Source: Mobula hypostoma | Taxonomy: Eukaryota | Direction: 5' to 3' | DNA: 64,000 bases | Assembly (NCBI RefSeq): GCF_963921235.1 | Contig: NC_086107.1 | Location: 94,366,001-94,430,000 of the forward strand | Shown: one piece after another, positions 20,350-31,600 of the stretch | Layout of the letters: every line of letters begins with the position of its first letter | How positions within the stretch are numbered: the first letter of the stretch is position 1 | Program-made: the position numbers and the translations under genes | The notes under the pieces: model-generated | What the model was told of the DNA's origin: nothing | Databases searched by the model: none | Seen by the model: the letters and a program-made list of their open reading frames with translations, nothing else

Positions 20350-20825
20350 TACACCCAGTGGCCGCGTTATTAGGTATACCAGTACACTCACTTGGTAATG
20401 CAAATACCTAATCAATCAATCATGTGGCAGCATAAAAACATGCAGATATGGTCAAAAGGTTCAGACCAAACATCAGAATGAGGCAGAAATGTGATCTAAA
20501 TGACTCTGACCATGGAATGATTGCTGGTGCCAGATGGGTTGGATTGAGTATCTCAGAAACTCTCACACACAACAGTCTCTTAAGTTTGCAGGGAATGGTG
20601 CAAAAAACAAAAAAAAAAAAAAAAAAATCCAGTGAGCGGTAGTTCTAAGGGCGAAAACACCTCATTAATGAGAGAGGTCAGAGGAGAACAGCCATACTGA
20701 CAGGAAGGCGACAGAAACTCAGATAACCACGCGTTACAACAGTGGTGTGAAGAAGAGCATCTCTGAATGCACACATGTTGAACCTTGAAGTGGATGGGCT
20801 ACAGCAACAGAAGACCGTGAACACT
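20350..20825 (+). mobile_element. Tc1-like non-autonomous element (transposase HTH remnant)
   Basis: TIR-like TACACCCAGTGGCCGCGTTATTAGG; MRQKCDLNDSDHGMIAGAR..GLSISET remnant; homologous to 38409-38920. Confidence 0.65.
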
Positions 20826-21883: not shown

Positions 21884-23103
21884 CTGAAAAATACATCACT
21901 CTTAAGCGTTAGCCAGCTCCAAATCTCAGGTTAAATATGATAGGATAACCTGTTGTAAAACACTGGTTAATTTTATTTTCATGTTAACCAACACCCAACT
22001 GACTGATTCCTATTTTCGCACTGGCCATGTTTCCTTAATCTTGCACAGACTCCCAAAAGACAGGAAGAATATGCAACGAAAAAAAGAGAAATTCAGTAAA
22101 ATGGCTGCATTGAGATTCGATCATAACCCTCATCCACTGAATTTCTAATCTCAGCCACAATACCACAAAGAGGCATCAATCAAAGAATGAAAGGAAACTG
22201 GTGGACAGATTGGGCCTATATACAATAAATACTTCACAGGAGGCTTCCATGAGACCAGTTGTTTTTGTATTAGTTCCTGGATAATGTTAGAACATTCTCT
22301 CTTTTCCTTGTAGATTTCACCCTCTTTCAAATACTTGTGCTATTTCCTTTCTAAAGTTATAATCGAATGGCACCATAAGGGTTAGCACAATGCTTACAGT
22401 GCCAGCAATCAGTTCAATTCCTGCCGCTGTCCGTAAGGAGACTGTATTCTCCACACGACTGTGAGGGTTCACCCCGGGTGCTTTGGTTTCCTCCCACATG
22501 GCAGAGACAGAGTAAGTTGTGGGCATGCTACGTTGGTGCCAGAAGCATGGCGACACTGGCGGCCTGTCCCCAGACTGTGTTGGCCGTTGACGTAGACGAG
22601 GCATTTCGCATGTTTTGATGTACATGGGACAAATAAAGCAAACCTTTAATCTTCCTCTATATAATGAATTCTAAATCACATCTCGTCACTGTAGAAAATG
22701 TCTTCTCTGTTCACCTATTCTGGCTACAACTACCTCAGTCCCTACAAACTGTTTATCATTCATGATGCCAAGCACCTGCATCAATGTGCCCTGAACAATG
22801 CCAGTATCTCAATTATCCCCACATAGATGAAGTCTCTCAACACTGGCATCATACAAGTAAATCAATATCCTCTCCTTATTAACTGGCCACTGGGCAATAA
22901 GCAGTTCAGATGGCTGCCCTGCTTCTCAGCCACAAACACTGGGATAAAGAAAAACTGGATTTTTTTTGTTTATAATAAATCTATAACACAGAAATGACCC
23001 AAGTGATGCAAGCTAGTCTTCCTCTTACACTACCTTCACCTAACCCTATCACTATAACCTTTGCCTTTTGTTCTCCCTCTTGGGAATTTACCTTTTATCA
23101 AGT

Positions 23104-23305
23104 TGTGGTGATATCACGTGCACTGATGATGTGCTAGTTCCTGACCGGATAGCACTGAGCATGCGCGGGGTTTGCCAGAATGTATCAGCATGTGGCAGGG
23201 TTAAGATGTGTTTGTTTATTTCTGTAAACAAAAGTTCTTTAATTCTTCCAGAATACGATTCTTTGTTGTTAAACCACGGAATGTTTAAATAGAAGTAACA
23301 TAACA
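23104..23305 (+). repeat. 5' LTR (202 bp)
   Basis: TGTGGTGATATC...GTAACATAACA; direct repeat of 24943-25141. Confidence 0.95.
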
Positions 23306-23319
23306 TGGTGTCAGAAGTG
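23306..23319 (+). promoter_or_regulatory. Primer-binding site (tRNA-Leu-like)
   Basis: TGGTGTCAGAAGTG immediately after the LTR; complementary to CACTTCTGACACCA, the 3' end of vertebrate tRNA-Leu(CAA) as I recall it. Confidence 0.85.
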
Positions 23320-23403
23320 CTTTTGGAAGAATAATACCGGAGAATTGAGAAACGGAGATAATCGAAAAAAAATAAGAAAAAAGTTCGAACAGTAATCGGT
23401 AAT

Positions 23404-24245
23404 ATGGAAGGCTTACAACCCCCACAAAAACTTCAGCTGACTGGGAATGTAGCTGAGAATTGGAGGATCTTCAAGCAACAGTTTGAAATATATTTATCGG
23501 CCATTGGAACTGATAAAAAAGCAGACAAAACCAAAGTGGCTACCCTGCTCCATGTAATCGGGACTGACACAGTAGAGTTATATGATAATTTTGTCTTTGA
23601 AGATGGAGATAATTTCAATTTAAAGTCGATAATGGACGGTTTTGAAGTATTTTGTATACCGAAGCATAATTTAACGTATGAGTGATACAAATTCTTCACG
23701 TGTCTGCAGAAGGCTGCTGAAACAATTGATCAGTATGTGACTGAGTTAAGAAAGCGTAGTAGAACGTGCAAGTTCGGATTGCTCACAAAATCACTTATTA
23801 AAGATAGACTTGTTTGTGGCACTCAAGATAATGCTCTAAGAGAAAGGCTTTTGCGCCAGCAAGATTTAAATTTTGAACAAGCATTCGCGCTCTGCAAAGC
23901 TTCTGAGTCCGTAAAGTCGTAGGCTGAAGAGCTTTTTGTTGAAAACTACAATGTAAATGCTGTAAAAAAGCACGAATATATCAAGAAATATAATAATGTC
24001 AACAAACCCGACGGAGAGCAAGACAGCATTTCAAAAAAAGTCATGTGATCGCTGTGCGCGGGAACACAGTCCAAATCAGTGTTTCGCATATGGCAATATT
24101 TGTTATTACTGTGGTAAGAGTAATCATTTTTCATGCTATTGTAGAAGTAGAAAGAAGGAAAATGAAATGAAACAAATAAATGCAGTGATTGAAGATGAAC
24201 GTGAGGAATTTTATATAGAAACGCTTTGCGCAAATACTGACATAG
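23404..24245 (+). pseudogene. Gypsy gag pseudogene
   Basis: ATG at 23404; GNVAENWRIFKQQFEIY, LIKDRLVCG, RERLLR; knuckles CDRCAREHSPNQC and CYYCGKSNHFSCYC; stops at 23683 and 23920; a frameshift near 23960-23995. Confidence 0.9.
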
Positions 24246-24431
24246 AATATAAAAGCAGTAGCTGCAGTGTCTGAGACGACCAAACAGGAGGCAATTGATG
24301 ATGTGAAAAAGCAATGGCAGGAAGAGGCTGTTTCAATGCAAGCAATAATGAAAGAGACACGGAGAGAATAGGAGATTCAGTCTAATCACCATCTAGAGCA
24401 AGAACGCTGACAGTGGGCACAGTATAAGCAA
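24246..24431 (+). pseudogene. RABEP1: Captured RABEP1 (rabaptin-5) N-terminal coiled-coil fragment inside the LTR element
   Basis: NIKAVAAVSETTKQEAIDDVKKQWQEEAVSMQAIMKETRRE*EIQSNHHLEQER*QWAQYKQ aligns ungapped to human RABEP1 about aa 87-148 as recalled (NIKAIATVSENTKQEAIDEVKRQWREEVASLQAVMKETVRDYEHQFHLRLEQERTQWAQYRE); 41/62 identical by hand count. Confidence 0.88.
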
Positions 24432-24929
24432 GTAGTGACAGCTCAAGTAACAGAATTGAGAAGTTTTATTGAAATGATGAAGTCTCAGCATTAAAAAAAA
24501 GAGATGACGCAGTTAATGAATGAATTAGATGACAAAAAGAAGATTCCTATTTCATTACCAATGGAAGTGGAAGGAATTAGGAAAGATACCGTCCAAACAG
24601 AAGCAGGGAAGCAGATTGCTGAGGAGGATAGCATGAACTACTTACCTGAAATTCCAGATTCTAACCAGGAAACATGTGAGAGTAAACCAAAAAGTTCAGT
24701 TGAGATACATGAAGAAAAGCTTAAAGCAGAAAAGAAGAAAAAGAAGAAGCACAAGAAGAGTCATGGCCCAGACAGCGAAGAGCCAACTTCAAGAGTTTCA
24801 GTTAGTTGACATAGATTTGTTTATTGGTTAATGTTGTTATTTGTTTTTCTTCTTAAGGAGAAGATGATGTGTTTCTTCAGAGAATTACGTATTTGTTTTG
24901 ATTAATGTTGTTCTTTATTTTTTCTTTTT

Positions 24930-24942
24930 AAGGAAGGGAAGA
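24930..24942 (+). promoter_or_regulatory. Polypurine tract
   Basis: AAGGAAGGGAAGA directly abutting the 3' LTR. Confidence 0.85.
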
Positions 24943-25141
24943 TGTGGTGATATCACGTGCAATGACGTGTCAGTTCCTGATTGGACAGCACTGAGCATGC
25001 GCGGGGTTTGCCAAAATGTATCAGCATGTGGCGGGGTTAAGATGTGTTTGCTTACTTCTGTAAATAAAAGTTCTTTAACTCTTCCAGAATATGATTCTTT
25101 GTTGTTAAACCACAGAATGTTTAAATAGAAGTAACATAACA
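24943..25141 (+). repeat. 3' LTR (199 bp)
   Basis: Direct repeat of the 5' LTR; about 14 substitutions and one 3-bp indel by hand alignment. Confidence 0.95.
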
Positions 25142-26697
25142 CAAGTTTTTTGCTGTCATAGGTTTTAAGATTTTAAGATGAGTTTTACTTGTCACTTGTA
25201 CGTTACAACATACAGTGAAATACGTTGTTCGCATCAACGACCTACACAGTCTGAGGATGTGCTGGGGGCAGCCTACAAGTGTCGCCATGTTTCTGGTACC
25301 AGCACAGCATGCCCACAACTCACCAACCCCTAAGCTTTTGAATGTGGGAGGGAGCTGGAGCCCCTGAAAAAACCCAGTCGCGGGGAAAACACTCAAACTC
25401 CTTACAGACAGTAACCAGAATTGAACTCTGATCACTGGCACTGTATGCTAACCGCTGCATTATGGTGTGTATACATACACTGGGTGTAAATGCCATGAAA
25501 ATTAACTTTCTGCTGCAGGAACACAGTACATTACAAGAACAGGGCAAAGACACAAACTTAAATTAACATAAAATAACTTGCATGTATGCAAATTAATAAA
25601 CAAAATAAAATGGGTGTTAGTGCAAGATAGAGACAGGACAAAGGCATCCAGTCCAAGGTACCTCATGACCGTGAACATTTTTAGATCCTTTCAAAAGTTC
25701 CATTGCACGTTGAGTATAACAAATGTGACCACATCTAGACTCCAAATCCCCTGCTGAACCGTATCAGATCAATCATGAGAATTGGCTAGTGCGCATGCAG
25801 CCAATTGATCACATAGTTAATCGATTGGGCCTCCTACGTGCAGAGGCCTGTCTTTTTGCACAGGCTTTCAAGCGCACACTTTTTTTCCATTCTAGCGGGC
25901 TCTGCTTGTCTCTACAGCACTGAAAGTTTGCCTAGCATGTACAGTTACTAACGTGACTCAGTTAAAACATTCAATCATACTACTCTGTTGTCATTTCTTG
26001 CTCCGTGCATACGCAACACCTGCCACCTGACATTTTCAAAGCACTGAAATAGGAAACAGCTTTTGTTCTCATTTTGCTCAGAGAGCAATGCCATGAGTTC
26101 ACCGAACAAACGGTGTCACTCATCTCCAGTTAGCTGACTCACAATGAGAATTAGCAAGTGCATAAAAGGGAAGGACTTGCAGAATGATGAGGCTCAAAAT
26201 TAAGTTTGTAAATATTGACTCAATTCCCTTTGTAAGCATTGGCCTGTTTCAACCTTTCACTCTGATACTAGATGATGAACCTGGTCAGATGACAGAGCTC
26301 TCACTGGGTGAGCATTTCAGAGACAGTTGCCACAATTCCCTGACCTTTACAGCAGACAGTATGGGAAAGTATCTAACTGAGGAAGGGGAAATTACAATGC
26401 TATCAGGCAGGAACTTGGAAGCATAAAATATACCAGGGGGAAATGCACAACAGAAATGCGGAGGTTGTTTTGGGAGCTCCTGCAGAGGGCTCTGGATAGG
26501 TTTGTCCCATTGAGGCAGGGAAAGAATGGTAGGGTGATGGTGAACCGTGGTTGACAGGAGATGTGGAACACCTAGTCAGGGGGAATAAAGAGCTTACTTA
26601 AGATTTAGGAAGTAAGTCAGACAGCGCTCTAAAGAGTTACAAAGTAGCCAGTAATGGACTTAGGAGAGCTAGAAGAGAATGTGAGAAGCCCTTGGTT

Positions 26698-27702
26698 CAG
26701 TCAGTCAGTGGGTGCCGTCCCGAATCTGGGGTTGGCAGCTATGCACCTCCATCTTCCTCGATCTTGCGCTCTTTTTCTGGCCTCAGCATAACTCAACCCA
26801 GTCCATTGCCTCACATTATCGTACCAAATGGTTTGCTGCCTTCTTCTTTCCCTCTTTCCTTCTATCATCCCTTCCAATAACAATTTCTGCAGTCCACCAC
26901 CTCTTAACAAGTGTCCAGCATATTCCAGCTTCCTTTTCTGCACATTCTTCAGCAACTCCTTTTCTCTCCTCGCCCTCTTCAACACTTCCATATTACTGAC
27001 CTTCATCACCCATCTAATTTTCTGCATTCTCCTTAAACGCCACATTTCAAATGCCTCCAGTCATCGTTGCGCTTCCTTGCGTAAGGTCCATGATTCGATT
27101 CCATACAACAGACTGTTCCAGACGTAGCATTTCCAAATTCTACAACGTAGCCCAAAGTCCGACCTCTTGCCACATAGCACGTCACCCAGGCTCCAGTATG
27201 TTGATCTTGCAATCTCAATTCTTCGTCTAATTTCTGTATCACATTTCCCATCCTCTGTGACCACCTGTCCCAAGTACACAAACTTCTTGACTTGCTCTAT
27301 GCCTATGCCATTAATTTTGAGACTGATTTTGGAGACTTCTTTCTTCCGTGATGCTACCATCATCTTCGTCTTTGCAGCATTTATTTTCATTCCAAATCGT
27401 TCTCCTTCAGCATTTATCTTATCTATTATTCTGAGTAACTCGTCCTCAGTCTCGGCTAACAACACTGAATCATCTGCATACCTCAAGTTCTTCACCGTCA
27501 CTCCACCAATTTGGACACCAACTTCATCATTCAACACCCTGAAGATTACCTCTGAGTAAACATTAAATAATAAAGGGGAGATAATGCAGCCCTGGCGAAC
27601 CCCTTTTTGGATCTCAACTTCCGGTGAATTCCCACCACAGTTCTTACTACTGCCTTCTGATGCCAGTACAGACTCGCAATCAGTCGAACATCTTTCCCAT
27701 CC
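26698..27702 (-). mobile_element. 5'-truncated RTE-clade LINE inserted in a CR1 fragment
   Basis: GVRQGCIISPLLFN, LRYADD, LLYGIESWT, LEAFEMWRLRRM; (ACTG)n tail; TSD AGCCCTTGGTT at 26687-26697 and 27703-27713. Confidence 0.9.
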
Positions 27703-28582
27703 AGCCCTTGGTTAAGTAGGATTAAAGAAAATCCGAAGGTCAGGAGAACAGGCGGATGACTAGAGTGAGGGTAGGTCCAATCAAGGATAAAATAGGAAAT
27801 GTGAGCCTAGAGTTGGAGGAGGAAAGTTAGTTCTTAATGAATACTTTGCTCACCAGTGCGAGAGACCTTGACAATGTGAGCAGGACAAAACAGACTGATG
27901 CACTGGAACACGCTGATGTCAAGAAGCCCAGGTCACTGCGGTCAGAGGTCCGTGCTAGTCCAGAAGTCAGAGTCCGAAGATGAAAAACTGGGCAGAGTCC
28001 GAAGTTGGAGGCCTGGTGTCTGCAAATCTGAGAGTTTGGCTAAGGACTGGAGGCCCAGAGGTAGCCTGCCCTGGGGATGGAGGCCTGTCAGTGTGTGAAA
28101 GTAGGTGGGTGGGGAAGGGCTTCTCCTTGCTACCGTTGTCTTGTTTTATTGTTCCTGCTTGTGTTTGTTCTGCTGAACATTGTGGGCATGCTATGTTGGC
28201 ACTAGAATGTGTGGTGATGCTTACGGGCTGCCCCTGGCATATCCTTGACTGTGCTGGTTGTTAATGCAAACAATGCATTTCACTGGATGTTTCAATGTAA
28301 TAAATAAATCTCAAGATGAATCTGAGTCTAACTGTTGGATTGGATAGGCAAATTGACTTCCTTTTGTATGACAGAATTCCAACTCACCAAAGTGCTGGAC
28401 GAGACTCTGGGTGCTGACTGGGGTAACCCTGCTCTACCTTTACTTGCACCAGAGATAAGTCGCCAGGCTGTTCACAAGGTTTGTTAAAAATGTTATATGT
28501 GCATAAATTATCGACAAGTCAAGGGAATTCTAGGTATGATGAAAAAAAACAAGGTGACAAAAAAATGCACCATCATTCTTAC

Positions 28583-28687
28583 CTTGAGCACCTGTGCCCT
28601 GTTGATCAAGTATGGCAAGTCAAAGTTCTGAATGTTGTATCCAGTAATTATATCAGGATCAGCTACTCGGATAAATTCTGACCAAGT
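28583..28687 (-). CDS. POLD1: POLD1 coding exon (exon 10 equivalent), 105 nt, ExoII motif
   Basis: ctcag|ACT...AAG|gtaag; [35 protein letters not shown]. Confidence 0.97.
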
Positions 28688-31600
28688 CTGAGGAAAAAGA
28701 GAAAAATATTCAAAGGTTTTTGAAGTCCTCAAATTGTACATCAATATTTGAAAATAAACTCATCAGAATGCTCTTCACTGTACATCTGTGGAAATTTGCT
28801 AGAGTGCTTTAGCCTTAGCCGCTGGCCTGCCTTCCTCATAATTGCAGCAACATGATGAGCCCAGGATCGATCTTCAGGGATGTTAATATCCAGGAAATTG
28901 AACTTGCTCGCCTTTTCCCTTGCTGATCTCTTGACGAGGACTGGTGCATGTTCTCCTGACTTCCCTTTTTGAAGTCTACAATCAATTCCTTGACCTTACT
29001 GACACAGTGCTAAGTCATTGTAGTGACACCACTCAACTAGCCGATCGATCTATCTCACTACCATACGCCTCCACGTCACCATCTGAGCTTCAGCCAACAA
29101 CAGCTGTGTCATCGGCAAATTTATGGATTCTGTTTGAGCTGAGCGATGTTGCGTCAGCTTGTGGATAAAGGGAGAGATATTTTTCCAAAGGATTTCAATC
29201 TTAACAAGACAAATTTGAATAACAAATTCCTACTCAGTGTCTGACAAACTGGCTCACGCACTGCAAGATCTCTGCTGAGAAGCAGGGTGTTGTCCTACAG
29301 AAGGAGCCCAGCATGGGGAGAGAAGCAACTCAAAACCAATTACAGTAAGATGGACAGCTGACCTACCTGGTCAACGAATGATATAATATCAAACTCGACA
29401 ATAACTAGAACACATTTCTATACAAAAGTATTATTTTCTCTTTGTTACATAGAATGTTACAGCAGAGAAAAAGGCTCACTAAGCCTAAATGTTCATACAC
29501 AACACCCACCTCCCACTCTCTATCATTCATTCAACACAGCCTATTCTCATCTACACTCGCTCTGTTAAATCTTTTAATCATAAATGTTGGTTCAAGGTAT
29601 AAATTTGGGTTATTTTTCTTGTGGTTTAACTTTCCTATGCTTGCTTATGATTTTTATATAATCACCTGTATACATGTAGGTTTTATATCAGTATATATCA
29701 GCAGGTTTTCTAGTAATTGTAGAATAACAGATTCTACTTTCTAGAAGCTTCTCAGTTTTTCTGCAGCAGGTGTCAAGTCACTTAAATCTAGCTATTTTAT
29801 AGGTTAATTGTTATTACTGATATGTCATCATCTTTGGCTAAATATGAGATCACCACGACTTCTTTGTCTTTGCTAATTTTTTTCTTGCTTTTCATCCCTT
29901 TAACACTTAATAAAATGACTGCAACCACCAAGTTTTATGCCTCCATACACTAGATCCACCTGCTTTCTAAAGAGCAAACAAATATTGAGATCTGGTAATG
30001 CAATTTGGGGCCAATCTCCACTATGGAAGCTCAGCGAAGAGGTTGAGCCTCAACAGCGAGCTTCCAAATCTTGAAGTACAGCGTCCTTCCACAAGAGCAG
30101 AATTAAGCCATTTGGCCCATTGCATCTACTCTGCCATTCAATCACGATTGATATTCTTTCCTCAAACCATCCCCCCACCATTCTCCCTATAACCCCAAAC
30201 CCCATTGCCAATCAAGAACCCAACAGTCTCTGCCTCACATTAGTTTCCCAAGGAGCCTCTGAACATCATGTCAGAAGTGCCAGGTATGGCATTTCCCTGG
30301 AATAAAAGACTGGGCCTTGTGGTTGCTGCAACTCATGATATTTAATAAGCTTACTTTCAGGTACAGAATGTGGGTAGCACAACCGAGACCAGTATCTACT
30401 GCTGTTGAACGGAGTAGCTGCCTAGGCCATTTCGTAAGGCAATAAAGTGACCCACACTGCCGTGTTGACCTGAAATAACAGACAAGGCAGTACCAGCAAA
30501 TTTCCTTCCCCAAAGTAAATAGGTGAGCAAAATGAGTTTCTATAAAACTCCATGAATTTCATAATCATTGCTAATACTAGCTCCTCACCTGGAATTAGTT
30601 TGATTGAGTATGTAGCTTTGAACGCCAGTCCCCCAGACCTTCAATTGAATGGCCCCAGACAACTGGTCTACCAACAGACACTAAGGTACAATACCTTCAG
30701 CATCATTTAACTAACCTTTCACTGACATTCATTTCTAAGATCAACAGAGACAAATATTTCAAAAGAAAAATTATTAGCTTTATTTGTCACAGGTACATCA
30801 AAACAGTGAAATGTGTTAATTTACATCAACGACTACAGACCCTGGATGTGCTGGGGGCAGCCACAAGTGCCGCCATGCTGCTGACACCAACGTAGCTTGC
30901 TCAGAACTTACTAACCCTAACCAGTTCCCCTTTGGAAAGGTGGAAAGAAACCTACACAGTCATGAGGAGAGTGTACAAACGCCTTCCAGAGGGTGGCAGG
31001 AATTGAACCCTGATCGCCACTTTGCCCCCCTCAATATTTCTATTGCATACTAAATTTACAGCCAGCAAAAAGCAGTGGATACAGCACTGTCCACCACAGG
31101 AAAAGCCCTCCCCACCGTTGAGCTTGTACATCTACTAGGCTTCTGGCTTCTGAAAGTGACCCAGATACTGAACTGATTCCACAACCAATGGACTCACTTT
31201 CAAGGACTCATTATCAAAGTATGTAGACTATATACAACCTTGAGATTTGTCTCCTTAGGGAGCCACAAAGCAAAGAAACTCAATCAAAGCCATTTTAAAA
31301 AAAGACTGTCAAACACCCAATGTGCAGAAAAAAAAATAAATCCAGCAAACAATAAAAGTAAGCCTGAACTGAAGTTCATGGAAGTGAGTTCACAGCCCTG
31401 AAGCCAGTCAAAGCCATTAGCTGCAGGCGGCAACCTCAGTTCAGCACAGAGACCAGTAAACCTTGCAGCTCGTCCCTCTCCTCCAGCCTCTACACCCTGA
31501 CCTTTTCAATCTGGCCTGGTGCTTAAATCGGCCAAACAACGGTTGTTCCTCACTCTCCGATCCAGGCCCTGCCATTTCGATCCACTCTCAGGCCGGGATC

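Follow-up and report, generated by a model that had tools for sequence, protein, structure and literature searches.

The DNA analysed here is a stretch of 64,000 nucleotides (nt) from the genome of the ray Mobula hypostoma (NCBI RefSeq assembly GCF_963921235.1, contig NC_086107.1, forward-strand positions 94,366,001 to 94,430,000), referred to below as the window; positions given without a locus or contig name are counted from its first letter. It holds a structurally complete long terminal repeat (LTR) retrotransposon of the Ty3/Gypsy type, in which a decayed gag is followed by coding fragments of three host genes, RABEP1 (rabaptin-5), SH3KBP1 (CIN85) and SLU7, and by the very end of pol (Table 1). 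The evidence laid out below makes it very probable that this element is a dead copy of a ray family that was formed by template switching of reverse transcriptase (RT) onto spliced host mRNAs.

The element has the hallmarks of LTR retrotransposons, namely paired TG...CA repeats, a 5-bp target-site duplication (TSD) and a polypurine tract. Both LTRs read TGTGGT..ATAACA, they differ by a p-distance of 0.070 over 199 nt, and their boundaries are common to sister copies elsewhere in the genome. Directly 3' of the 5' LTR, TGGTGTCAGAAG... is a candidate primer-binding site, proposed from the sequence. Gag carries a zinc knuckle of the form CX2CX4HX4C and stands directly upstream of the RABEP1 piece, in a different frame. 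No RT, RNase H or integrase was found between gag and the 3' LTR, where only the last pol codons are left; the element is not an autonomous retrotransposon, because it has neither RT nor integrase of its own. With five stops and two frame changes (near 23922-23966 and 24243-24246), this copy is a dead pseudogene, as the first-pass annotation of the stretch had said. From the 7% LTR divergence, the insertion is likely to be tens of millions of years old, the neutral rate being probably slow.

Table 1. Features of the chimeric LTR element and its flanks (positions in the window)
Feature	Position	Strand	Remarks
Whole element	23104-25141		2,038 bases; decayed non-autonomous Ty3/Gypsy-type LTR element, structurally complete
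5' target-site duplication CAAGT	23099-23103	.	identical 5 nt at 25142-25146
5' LTR, TG...CA	23104-23305	+	202 nt, direct repeat of 24943-25141
Primer-binding-site-like sequence	23306-23323	+	starts TGG, abuts 5' LTR; read from sequence
Decayed gag	23404-24228	+	stops 23683, 23920; frame change ~23922-23966; CCHC knuckle 24101-24142
RABEP1 mRNA fragment	24229-24433	+	parts of two host exons, exon-exon joint 24354/24355; stops 24369, 24408
SH3KBP1 (CIN85) C-terminal coiled-coil fragment	24430-24587	+	stop 24492
RABEP1/SH3KBP1 crossover zone	24430-24437	+	sequence common to both
Pol (integrase) C-terminal tail remnant, ..TVQTE	24588-24603	+	33-nt in-frame deletion vs SH3KBP1-only family (L049)
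SLU7 mRNA fragment	24600-24781	+	three host exons, joints 24620/24621 and 24704/24705
Pol tail end, EEPTSRVSVS	24778-24809	+	stop codon 24807-24809; in-frame match to KKEPTSEFQL of sister forms
3' untranslated region	24810-24929	+	second polypurine-like run 24865-24877, then TGTG, then tail restart
Polypurine tract AAGGAAGGGAAGA	24930-24942	+	adjoins 3' LTR
3' LTR	24943-25141	+	199 nt
3' target-site duplication CAAGT	25142-25146	.

The first-pass annotation had recognized rabaptin in the translation of 24246-24809. That peptide is reproduced letter for letter (NIKAVAAVSETTKQEAIDDVKKQWQEEAVSMQAIMKETRRE, stop, EIQSNHHLEQER, stop, QWAQY...), with the two stops it placed in the RABEP1 part present as TAG and TGA, respectively, and a third one, TAA at 24492, that it had not mentioned. 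The rabaptin identity itself was confirmed by the Pfam comparison it had asked for, in which the peptide, with stops written as X, matched Rabaptin (PF03528) with an E value of 4.1e-27 and 95.5 bits against a cut-off of 26.7. This match spans profile positions 79-203. The genuine RABEP1 part ends near peptide residue 63, and the remainder of the match is the coiled-coil likeness of the SH3KBP1 piece. The RABEP1 peptide is identical to a ray RABEP1 protein at 53 of 72 residues, and its DNA shows 11 differences over ~192 compared sites (~94% identity) from the host coding exons at C71:53174326-53174589(-) and 53165164-53165280(-), where C71, like C18 and C21 below, is our label for a contig of the ray assembly. 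In the host these exons are separated by an intron of 9 kb; the element runs unbroken from the exon end, ..MQAIMK, into the next exon, ETLREYEIQ.., and the capture of an mRNA, which the earlier reading had proposed to check at such a junction, is thereby upheld. Only ~68 codons of RABEP1 are carried. A functional RABEP1 paralogue was considered and rejected, the C-terminal Rab5-binding region being absent from the element; host exons matching Rabaptin profile positions 254-486 were found at the C71 locus only.

Other parts of that annotation had to be revised. It had carried RABEP1 on to 24809 by way of an LPME thought to continue the rabaptin sequence. The RABEP1 homology ends at 24433, LPME belongs to SH3KBP1 (ISLQMEVEGIKK), and SH3KBP1 and SLU7 make up what follows. 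Similarly, the gag/RABEP1 junction had been placed at GAC ATA GAAT ATA, and the actual joint lies five codons upstream, at ~24228-24231 (LC/ANTD, the slash marking the joint). The site named is a later 2-nt length difference; the deficit noticed there, before NIKAV (~24243-24246), is real, the window copy being 2 nt shorter there than the host exon and most sister copies.

A search of solved structures splits the host-like peptide, with residues 49-114 matching the C-terminal coiled coil of SH3KBP1/CIN85 (5abs, 2n64; E 9e-9) and residues 119-179 the C-terminal region of SLU7. Protein searches returned ray SLU7 (E 2.5e-18) and ray SH3KBP1 (E 2e-11), and BLASTP aligned the SH3KBP1 piece to residues 584-630 of ray SH3KBP1 with 40/48 identities and the SLU7 piece to ray SLU7 with 44/56. 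At the DNA level, blastn matched the SLU7 piece at 87-91% identity to host C21:67580193-214, 67583226-309 and 67588984-9065, that is, to the last part of one host exon, all of an 84-nt exon and the first part of a third; it crosses two exon junctions, and the introns of 3.0 and 5.7 kb are absent. The SH3KBP1 piece crosses at least one junction, where the host exon (C18) ends TTACCA/GTGAGT and the element continues into coding sequence. Some 52 codons of SH3KBP1 and 60 of SLU7 are carried, and, compared with the host genes, the SH3 domains of the former and the Slu7 domain (PF11708) of the latter are absent. All three host pieces derive from spliced mRNAs of this genome's own RABEP1, SH3KBP1 and SLU7.

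The chimera is present in many copies. A DNA search of the genome (3.48 Gb) gave 1321 first-look candidates, 40 of which were scored; here and below, copy counts are lower bounds, and first-look candidate numbers (1321, 264, 238, 257 and 93) are not copy numbers. From one LTR to the other, and across all three host pieces, loci L002-L020 match the window element colinearly, at 84-89% identity overall and 84-88% in gag DNA. Both LTRs are kept at 21 loci, the window included, where 11 of the 5-bp TSDs are perfect and 8 have one mismatch, all being different from one another, and 2 are unclear; the LTR pairs diverge by 6-15%, with a median of 8.5%. Since the TSDs are separate and the LTR pairs diverged, the chimera as a whole has undergone many transpositions, in the distant past. 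The proposal of host-gene transduction by an LTR element is thus borne out, and so is its spread as a family, with at least 19 further colinear copies and differing TSDs. The case that the first-pass annotation had named as telling against it, a secondary insertion into a single copy, was not found, the chimera having multiplied with separate target duplications. The SLU7 part gave 93 candidates, and all 40 that were scored are full length. The Rabaptin profile gave 264, of which 88 were scored and proved to be 86 element copies and the 2 host exons; profile start positions do not separate subfamilies in this genome scan, as the match to this coiled-coil profile runs on into the end of gag. 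The 13132 candidates for whole SH3KBP1 include SH3 exons of other genes.

Sister forms of the window element, which we term type B (gag-RABEP1-SH3KBP1-SLU7-pol tail), suggest how this arrangement was assembled. The R-form (L035, L036) retains ~60 RT codons, to CHQLKTE, followed by RABEP1 alone (Pfam E 6.7e-50) and the pol tail. Type A (L031, L033, L034) reads gag-knuckle-protease (DTG)-RABEP1, with RABEP1 starting earlier, at LKRQN, and the SH3KBP1 coil lying inside RABEP1, which resumes as ..DLGRRLSEGQ and is followed by the pol tail, ..RSYLVQTEDGAVLRKNRK..; one type-A copy has an open frame of 396 amino acids (aa) across gag, protease, RABEP1 and SH3KBP1 and onward to the pol tail. The C-form (L049, at G000:C21:167526800-167530800, G000 being this genome) is a sister non-autonomous family with SH3KBP1 as its sole host piece, and reads gag-protease-RT start-SH3KBP1 C-terminus (~120 residues)-pol tail in one 563-aa frame. 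The non-coil part of SH3KBP1 gave 238 candidates for it, and the 40 scored copies are 95-98% alike, which makes the C-form a more recent family than that of the window. A deletion between two ACAGAG repeats distinguishes type A from the R-form, and the RABEP1 end points of these two forms are identical. In type B, a deletion runs from the gag end (..VLC/EN..) into RABEP1 (..E/ANAD..), with loss of the protease; its SH3KBP1-to-tail joint is the same as that of the C-form, to which a 33-nt tail deletion and the SLU7 insertion are added. The original RABEP1 crossover lies in the RT gene. Gag is directly followed by RABEP1 in the window, as had been described, but the adjacency is secondary, the older forms being gag-protease-(RT start)-RABEP1-pol tail.

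Two observations on the sister copies may be added here. In the type-A copy L031 (1661-3289, minus strand), a long interspersed nuclear element (LINE) with a 417-aa RT frame sits inside the protease, having nested there after insertion. In type-B copies, the 3' region (window 24810-24929; L003:3190-3430; L005; L019) holds a second polypurine-like run and then TGTG, the first bases of the LTR, after which the pol tail restarts (..FQLTDAD..); next come its stop, another untranslated region and the polypurine tract proper. Of this second tail, the window copy lacks about 125 nt that sister copies have. The duplicated tail resembles what a further aberrant template switch, or an event of plus-strand priming, would leave behind.

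The extent of the loss is seen by comparison with relatives that keep pol. A parent-like copy, L032, encodes protease, RVT_1 and RT_RNaseH_2 in that order, and P0036, a 55%-identical full polyprotein of 1285 aa, has gag, protease (284-369), RT (469-623), RNase H (689-819) and integrase (933-1090). The chimera aligns to P0036 at two ends only, residues 38-400 and 1207-1285. Therefore, ~800 pol codons have given way to host sequence, and what we call the tail is the genuine C-terminal end of pol, read in pol's own frame. The claim that pol was replaced by host sequence thus holds for most of it, but the last codons and the polypurine tract remain. By its sequence, the family is assigned to the Ty3/Gypsy lineage on the pol domain order protease-RT-RNase H-integrase, as read in L032 and P0036 (the window element itself is without these domains).

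The host cassettes have also changed backbones. The RABEP1 cassettes of the window and the R-form are 91-93% identical, as against 70-71% for their gag, and the SH3KBP1 pieces of the window and the C-form are 89% identical, as against 76% for gag. Given that the cassettes are so much more alike than gag, and that the RABEP1 end points are common, the RABEP1 cassette has moved between diverged backbones. By first-look candidates, chimeras (264 for RABEP1, 238 for SH3KBP1) and RT-bearing relatives (257) are similar in number. Type-A junctions (..DSDTE/LKRQN.., ..YKE/EVKAQVKELRS.. and ..QMEVE/HELTGLRR..) are also seen in two predicted stingray proteins, P0016 of Hypanus sabinus and P0017 of Hemitrygon akajei, and a further Hemitrygon akajei protein, P0019, is a C-form; the chimeras therefore exist in at least two ray species. 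These stingray chimeras are annotated as 'RABEP1-like' or 'uncharacterized'.

The joints themselves bear on the mechanism. At the five for which both parents are available, these share 6 nt (AGAGCT, RT/RABEP1), 8 nt (GTCATAAA, RT/SH3KBP1), 7 nt (AGTGGAA, SH3KBP1 back to RABEP1), 4 nt (GAAG, pol tail/SLU7) and 4 nt (AAGA, SLU7/pol tail). Microhomology of 4-8 nt at joints is the mark of RT template switching. Neither a poly(A) tail nor a LINE-type duplication was seen at the joints of the captured fragments. Splice-mediated capture at the start of the RABEP1 exon and, for the 5' joint, transduction by read-through and splicing were both rejected: because the base before AGAGCT is the element's own C in 5/5 chimeric copies read and the parent has no GT donor at the crossover, a splice joint is excluded. 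Nor is a read-through route indicated, because neither junction carries host intron or flanking DNA.

We therefore propose that, in an ancestor, RT copying the element RNA would have jumped at short microhomologies to spliced host mRNAs that presumably shared its particle, and would later have returned to the element RNA, so that most of pol (~800 codons) would have been replaced by host coding fragments. Later switches, recombination between chimeric RNAs and in-frame deletions would have yielded the R-form, the C-form, type A and type B. For both copying and insertion, the chimeras would then have relied on enzymes from autonomous relatives. Such mobilisation in trans is required because they have no RT or integrase; what is needed in cis, namely the LTRs, a primer-binding-site-like sequence, the polypurine tract and the gag region, is kept.

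The reading frame has been preserved throughout. In 21 of the 24 type-B sister copies (the exceptions being L016, L023 and L025) the gag knuckle and RABEP1 share one frame, which is shifted in the window, and the in-frame Gag-rabaptin ancestor postulated by the first-pass annotation is most likely. More generally, 8/8 host/element joints and 3/3 shared deletions examined keep a single frame from gag to the pol stop, where the chance expectation for all 11 is (1/3)^11. The searches that brought up these forms used DNA or six-frame comparison and did not select for long open reading frames. As the frame is intact across every junction read, the founders' products were polyproteins in which Gag, with or without protease, was fused to a host coil; it seems that lineages in which the frame was lost failed to amplify. 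Such a filter could stem from a useful Gag-coil protein or, equally, from a need in cis, for example for the RNA to be translated or kept stable as far as the normal pol stop.

Several points weigh against this account. The RABEP1/pol-tail joint falls outside the set of five, and the crossover into RABEP1 falls inside AGAGCT, nt 2-7 of a host exon (G000:C71:53174589 region), a coincidence that might hint at another route. Only amplified forms were sampled, and out-of-frame chimeras may exist unseen. In pairwise Nei-Gojobori counts on 25 copies, with no correction for transition bias, differences from the host exons at codon positions 1/2/3 were 105/102/101 for RABEP1 and 145/117/148 for SLU7, and the ratio of nonsynonymous to synonymous differences (pN/pS) was 0.58 and 0.43 between host and copy and 0.68-0.69 between copies; no clear protein constraint was thus detected among these copies by either measure, in a test that has little power because most of the divergence is post-insertion decay. 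Co-packaging and trans-mobilisation, finally, are steps that we infer only, and the same applies to the order in which the events took place and to why the frame should matter. As for transcription, contigs from four runs of a kind that we can only guess bridge gag to RABEP1 to SH3KBP1 (24135-24458) and SH3KBP1 to SLU7 (24550-24791), and the same contig runs also hold spliced host SLU7 and RABEP1 contigs; carry-over of DNA is possible, and we claim nothing from them.

Other histories of the element were weighed as well. The version of the first-pass annotation, in which pol gave way to a single RABEP1 fragment reaching 24809 and joined at GAC ATA GAAT ATA, rightly drew on the RABEP1 homology of 24246-24431 and agrees with the in-frame gag-RABEP1 of sister copies, but we give it next to no credence: it is refuted by the SH3KBP1 and SLU7 identities of 24430-24587 and 24600-24781, the host RABEP1 exon diverges after QWAQYKE, the joint lies at ~24228-24231, and older forms keep the protease and the RT start. 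It is hardly conceivable, too, that a processed pseudogene made by a LINE landed in one element copy and was spread by segmental duplication. LINE reverse transcriptases are indeed abundant in the genome, as exemplified by 27061-27711 of the window and by the LINE inside L031; this origin is contradicted, however, by joints that have microhomology and neither poly(A) nor duplication around the fragments, by host pieces that replace pol instead of interrupting it, and by copies on many contigs, each with its own LTR pair and 5-bp duplication. Domestication, whereby a Gag-RABEP1-SH3KBP1-SLU7 frame would serve the ray, might explain why some copies have long open frames and why two stingrays have predicted proteins of this kind. 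We consider it very improbable, given that tens to hundreds of decayed copies are dispersed with LTR pairs 6-15% diverged, that five stops and two changes of frame interrupt the window copy, that codon-position differences are flat, and that a single conserved locus was not identified.

A different question is whether the host pieces were retained for a benefit to the element, the Gag-fused RABEP1/CIN85 coils adding multimerisation, endosome targeting or exploitation of helper particles. Retroviral Gag can still assemble with a leucine zipper in place of nucleocapsid, and this, together with the in-frame state of every junction examined, the similar candidate counts of chimeras and RT-bearing relatives (264 and 238 vs 257), the movement of the RABEP1 cassette between gag backbones (91-93% vs 70-71%) and the fact that coiled coils of endocytic adaptors account for two of the three donor pieces, speaks for such adaptive retention. 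On the other hand, constraint among copies is undetectable, an unbroken frame might be of use in cis, for translation or for the stability of the RNA, SLU7 contributes no coiled coil, and the candidate counts are crude; retention for benefit is thus conceivable, though we doubt it. It is likewise no better than a tentative idea, and an unlikely one, that ray Gypsy lineages repeatedly acquire, exchange and keep in-frame endocytic-adaptor coils because a Gag-coil protein assembles, traffics or parasitises a helper better. If true, this would be a natural counterpart of the laboratory 'Gag-zipper' constructs, with host-domain capture driving the success of non-autonomous retroelements.

Template switching onto spliced host mRNAs has precedents. 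Tan et al. (2016) describe LTR-mediated retroposition through microsimilarity-dependent template switching, including multi-gene chimeras, and 'pseudo-LTR retrotransposons' that undergo further rounds of retroposition (PMC5131818). In the portion of that account used here, such events leave an internal retrocopy of a partial mRNA with exon-exon junctions, flanked by discontinuous element sequence and replacing part of the open reading frame, as in the ray family; the fusion-point microsimilarity has a median of 6 bp in metazoans, vs 4-8 nt in the rays (PMC5131818). Indeed, intronless host sequence between LTRs, replacement of the element's reading frame, microsimilarity and the absence of poly(A) and LINE duplication are all seen here. 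Unlike the ray family, the cases in that portion of the text include no cartilaginous fish and no high-copy family (PMC5131818). Among individual elements, the nearest parallel is Bs1 of maize (Jin & Bennetzen 1994; Elrouby & Bureau 2001, 2010), which the excerpted sources present as a defective LTR element with partial sequences of three unlinked host genes inside it and a hybrid reading frame (PMC5131818, PMC13317346). For its chimera, a role as a domesticated gene has been proposed. As far as the same excerpts go, Bs1 is a plant element of 1-5 copies in which one of the three captured regions is out of frame (PMC5131818). The ray family, in contrast, is found in a vertebrate and in more than one species, with three fragments in frame, several recombinant sister forms exchanging cassettes, and at least 40 scored SLU7-bearing and 86 scored RABEP1-bearing copies.

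There is also a parallel with retroviruses, for whose capture of oncogenes the model of Swain & Coffin is cited in the part of Tan et al. consulted (PMC5131818). In the ray family, host coding sequence replaces pol in frame with Gag, and dependence on a helper is likely from its structure. Acutely transforming retroviruses are likewise defective and helper-dependent, with intronless host sequence replacing pol in a Gag-onc fusion that arises by non-homologous RT recombination. Unlike them, the ray family has no env and no infectious cycle and spreads in the germ line, and the captured pieces are coiled-coil or charged segments, as against growth-control domains. A literature search linking rabaptin, retrotransposon and gag gave nothing relevant by title or abstract, the elasmobranch repeat literature not having been specifically searched. 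The mechanism is known; the ray family stands out for the number of its copies, for a mosaic drawn from three genes and for a frame left unbroken at all junctions examined.

Some neighbouring features of the window deserve mention. An 83-aa open frame at 28508-28759 (minus strand) matches the family-B DNA polymerase exonuclease domain (PF03104, E 5e-13) and probably belongs, as an exon, to a host gene for a replicative polymerase, in or near which the LTR element may lie. At 27061-27711 (minus strand), a 216-aa open frame matches RVT_1 (E 6e-19) and is, by its motifs, a LINE-type RT fragment unrelated to the LTR element. A 68-aa frame at 20436-20642 (plus strand; ..RPNIRMRQKCDLNDSDHGMIAGARWVGLSISETL..) has no Pfam match; we take it to resemble the DNA-binding end of Tc1/mariner transposases.

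In ray genomes, copies of the family that now carry the erroneous label 'RABEP1-like' or 'uncharacterized' should be treated as repeats and masked. The family also raises the question of whether non-autonomous retroelements must keep the stretch from gag to the end of pol translatable, or profit from fused host coiled coils. More broadly, LTR-mediated capture of host mRNAs, mainly known at single or few copies, can found vertebrate families of tens to hundreds of members, and the captured cassettes can be shuffled between diverged element lineages.

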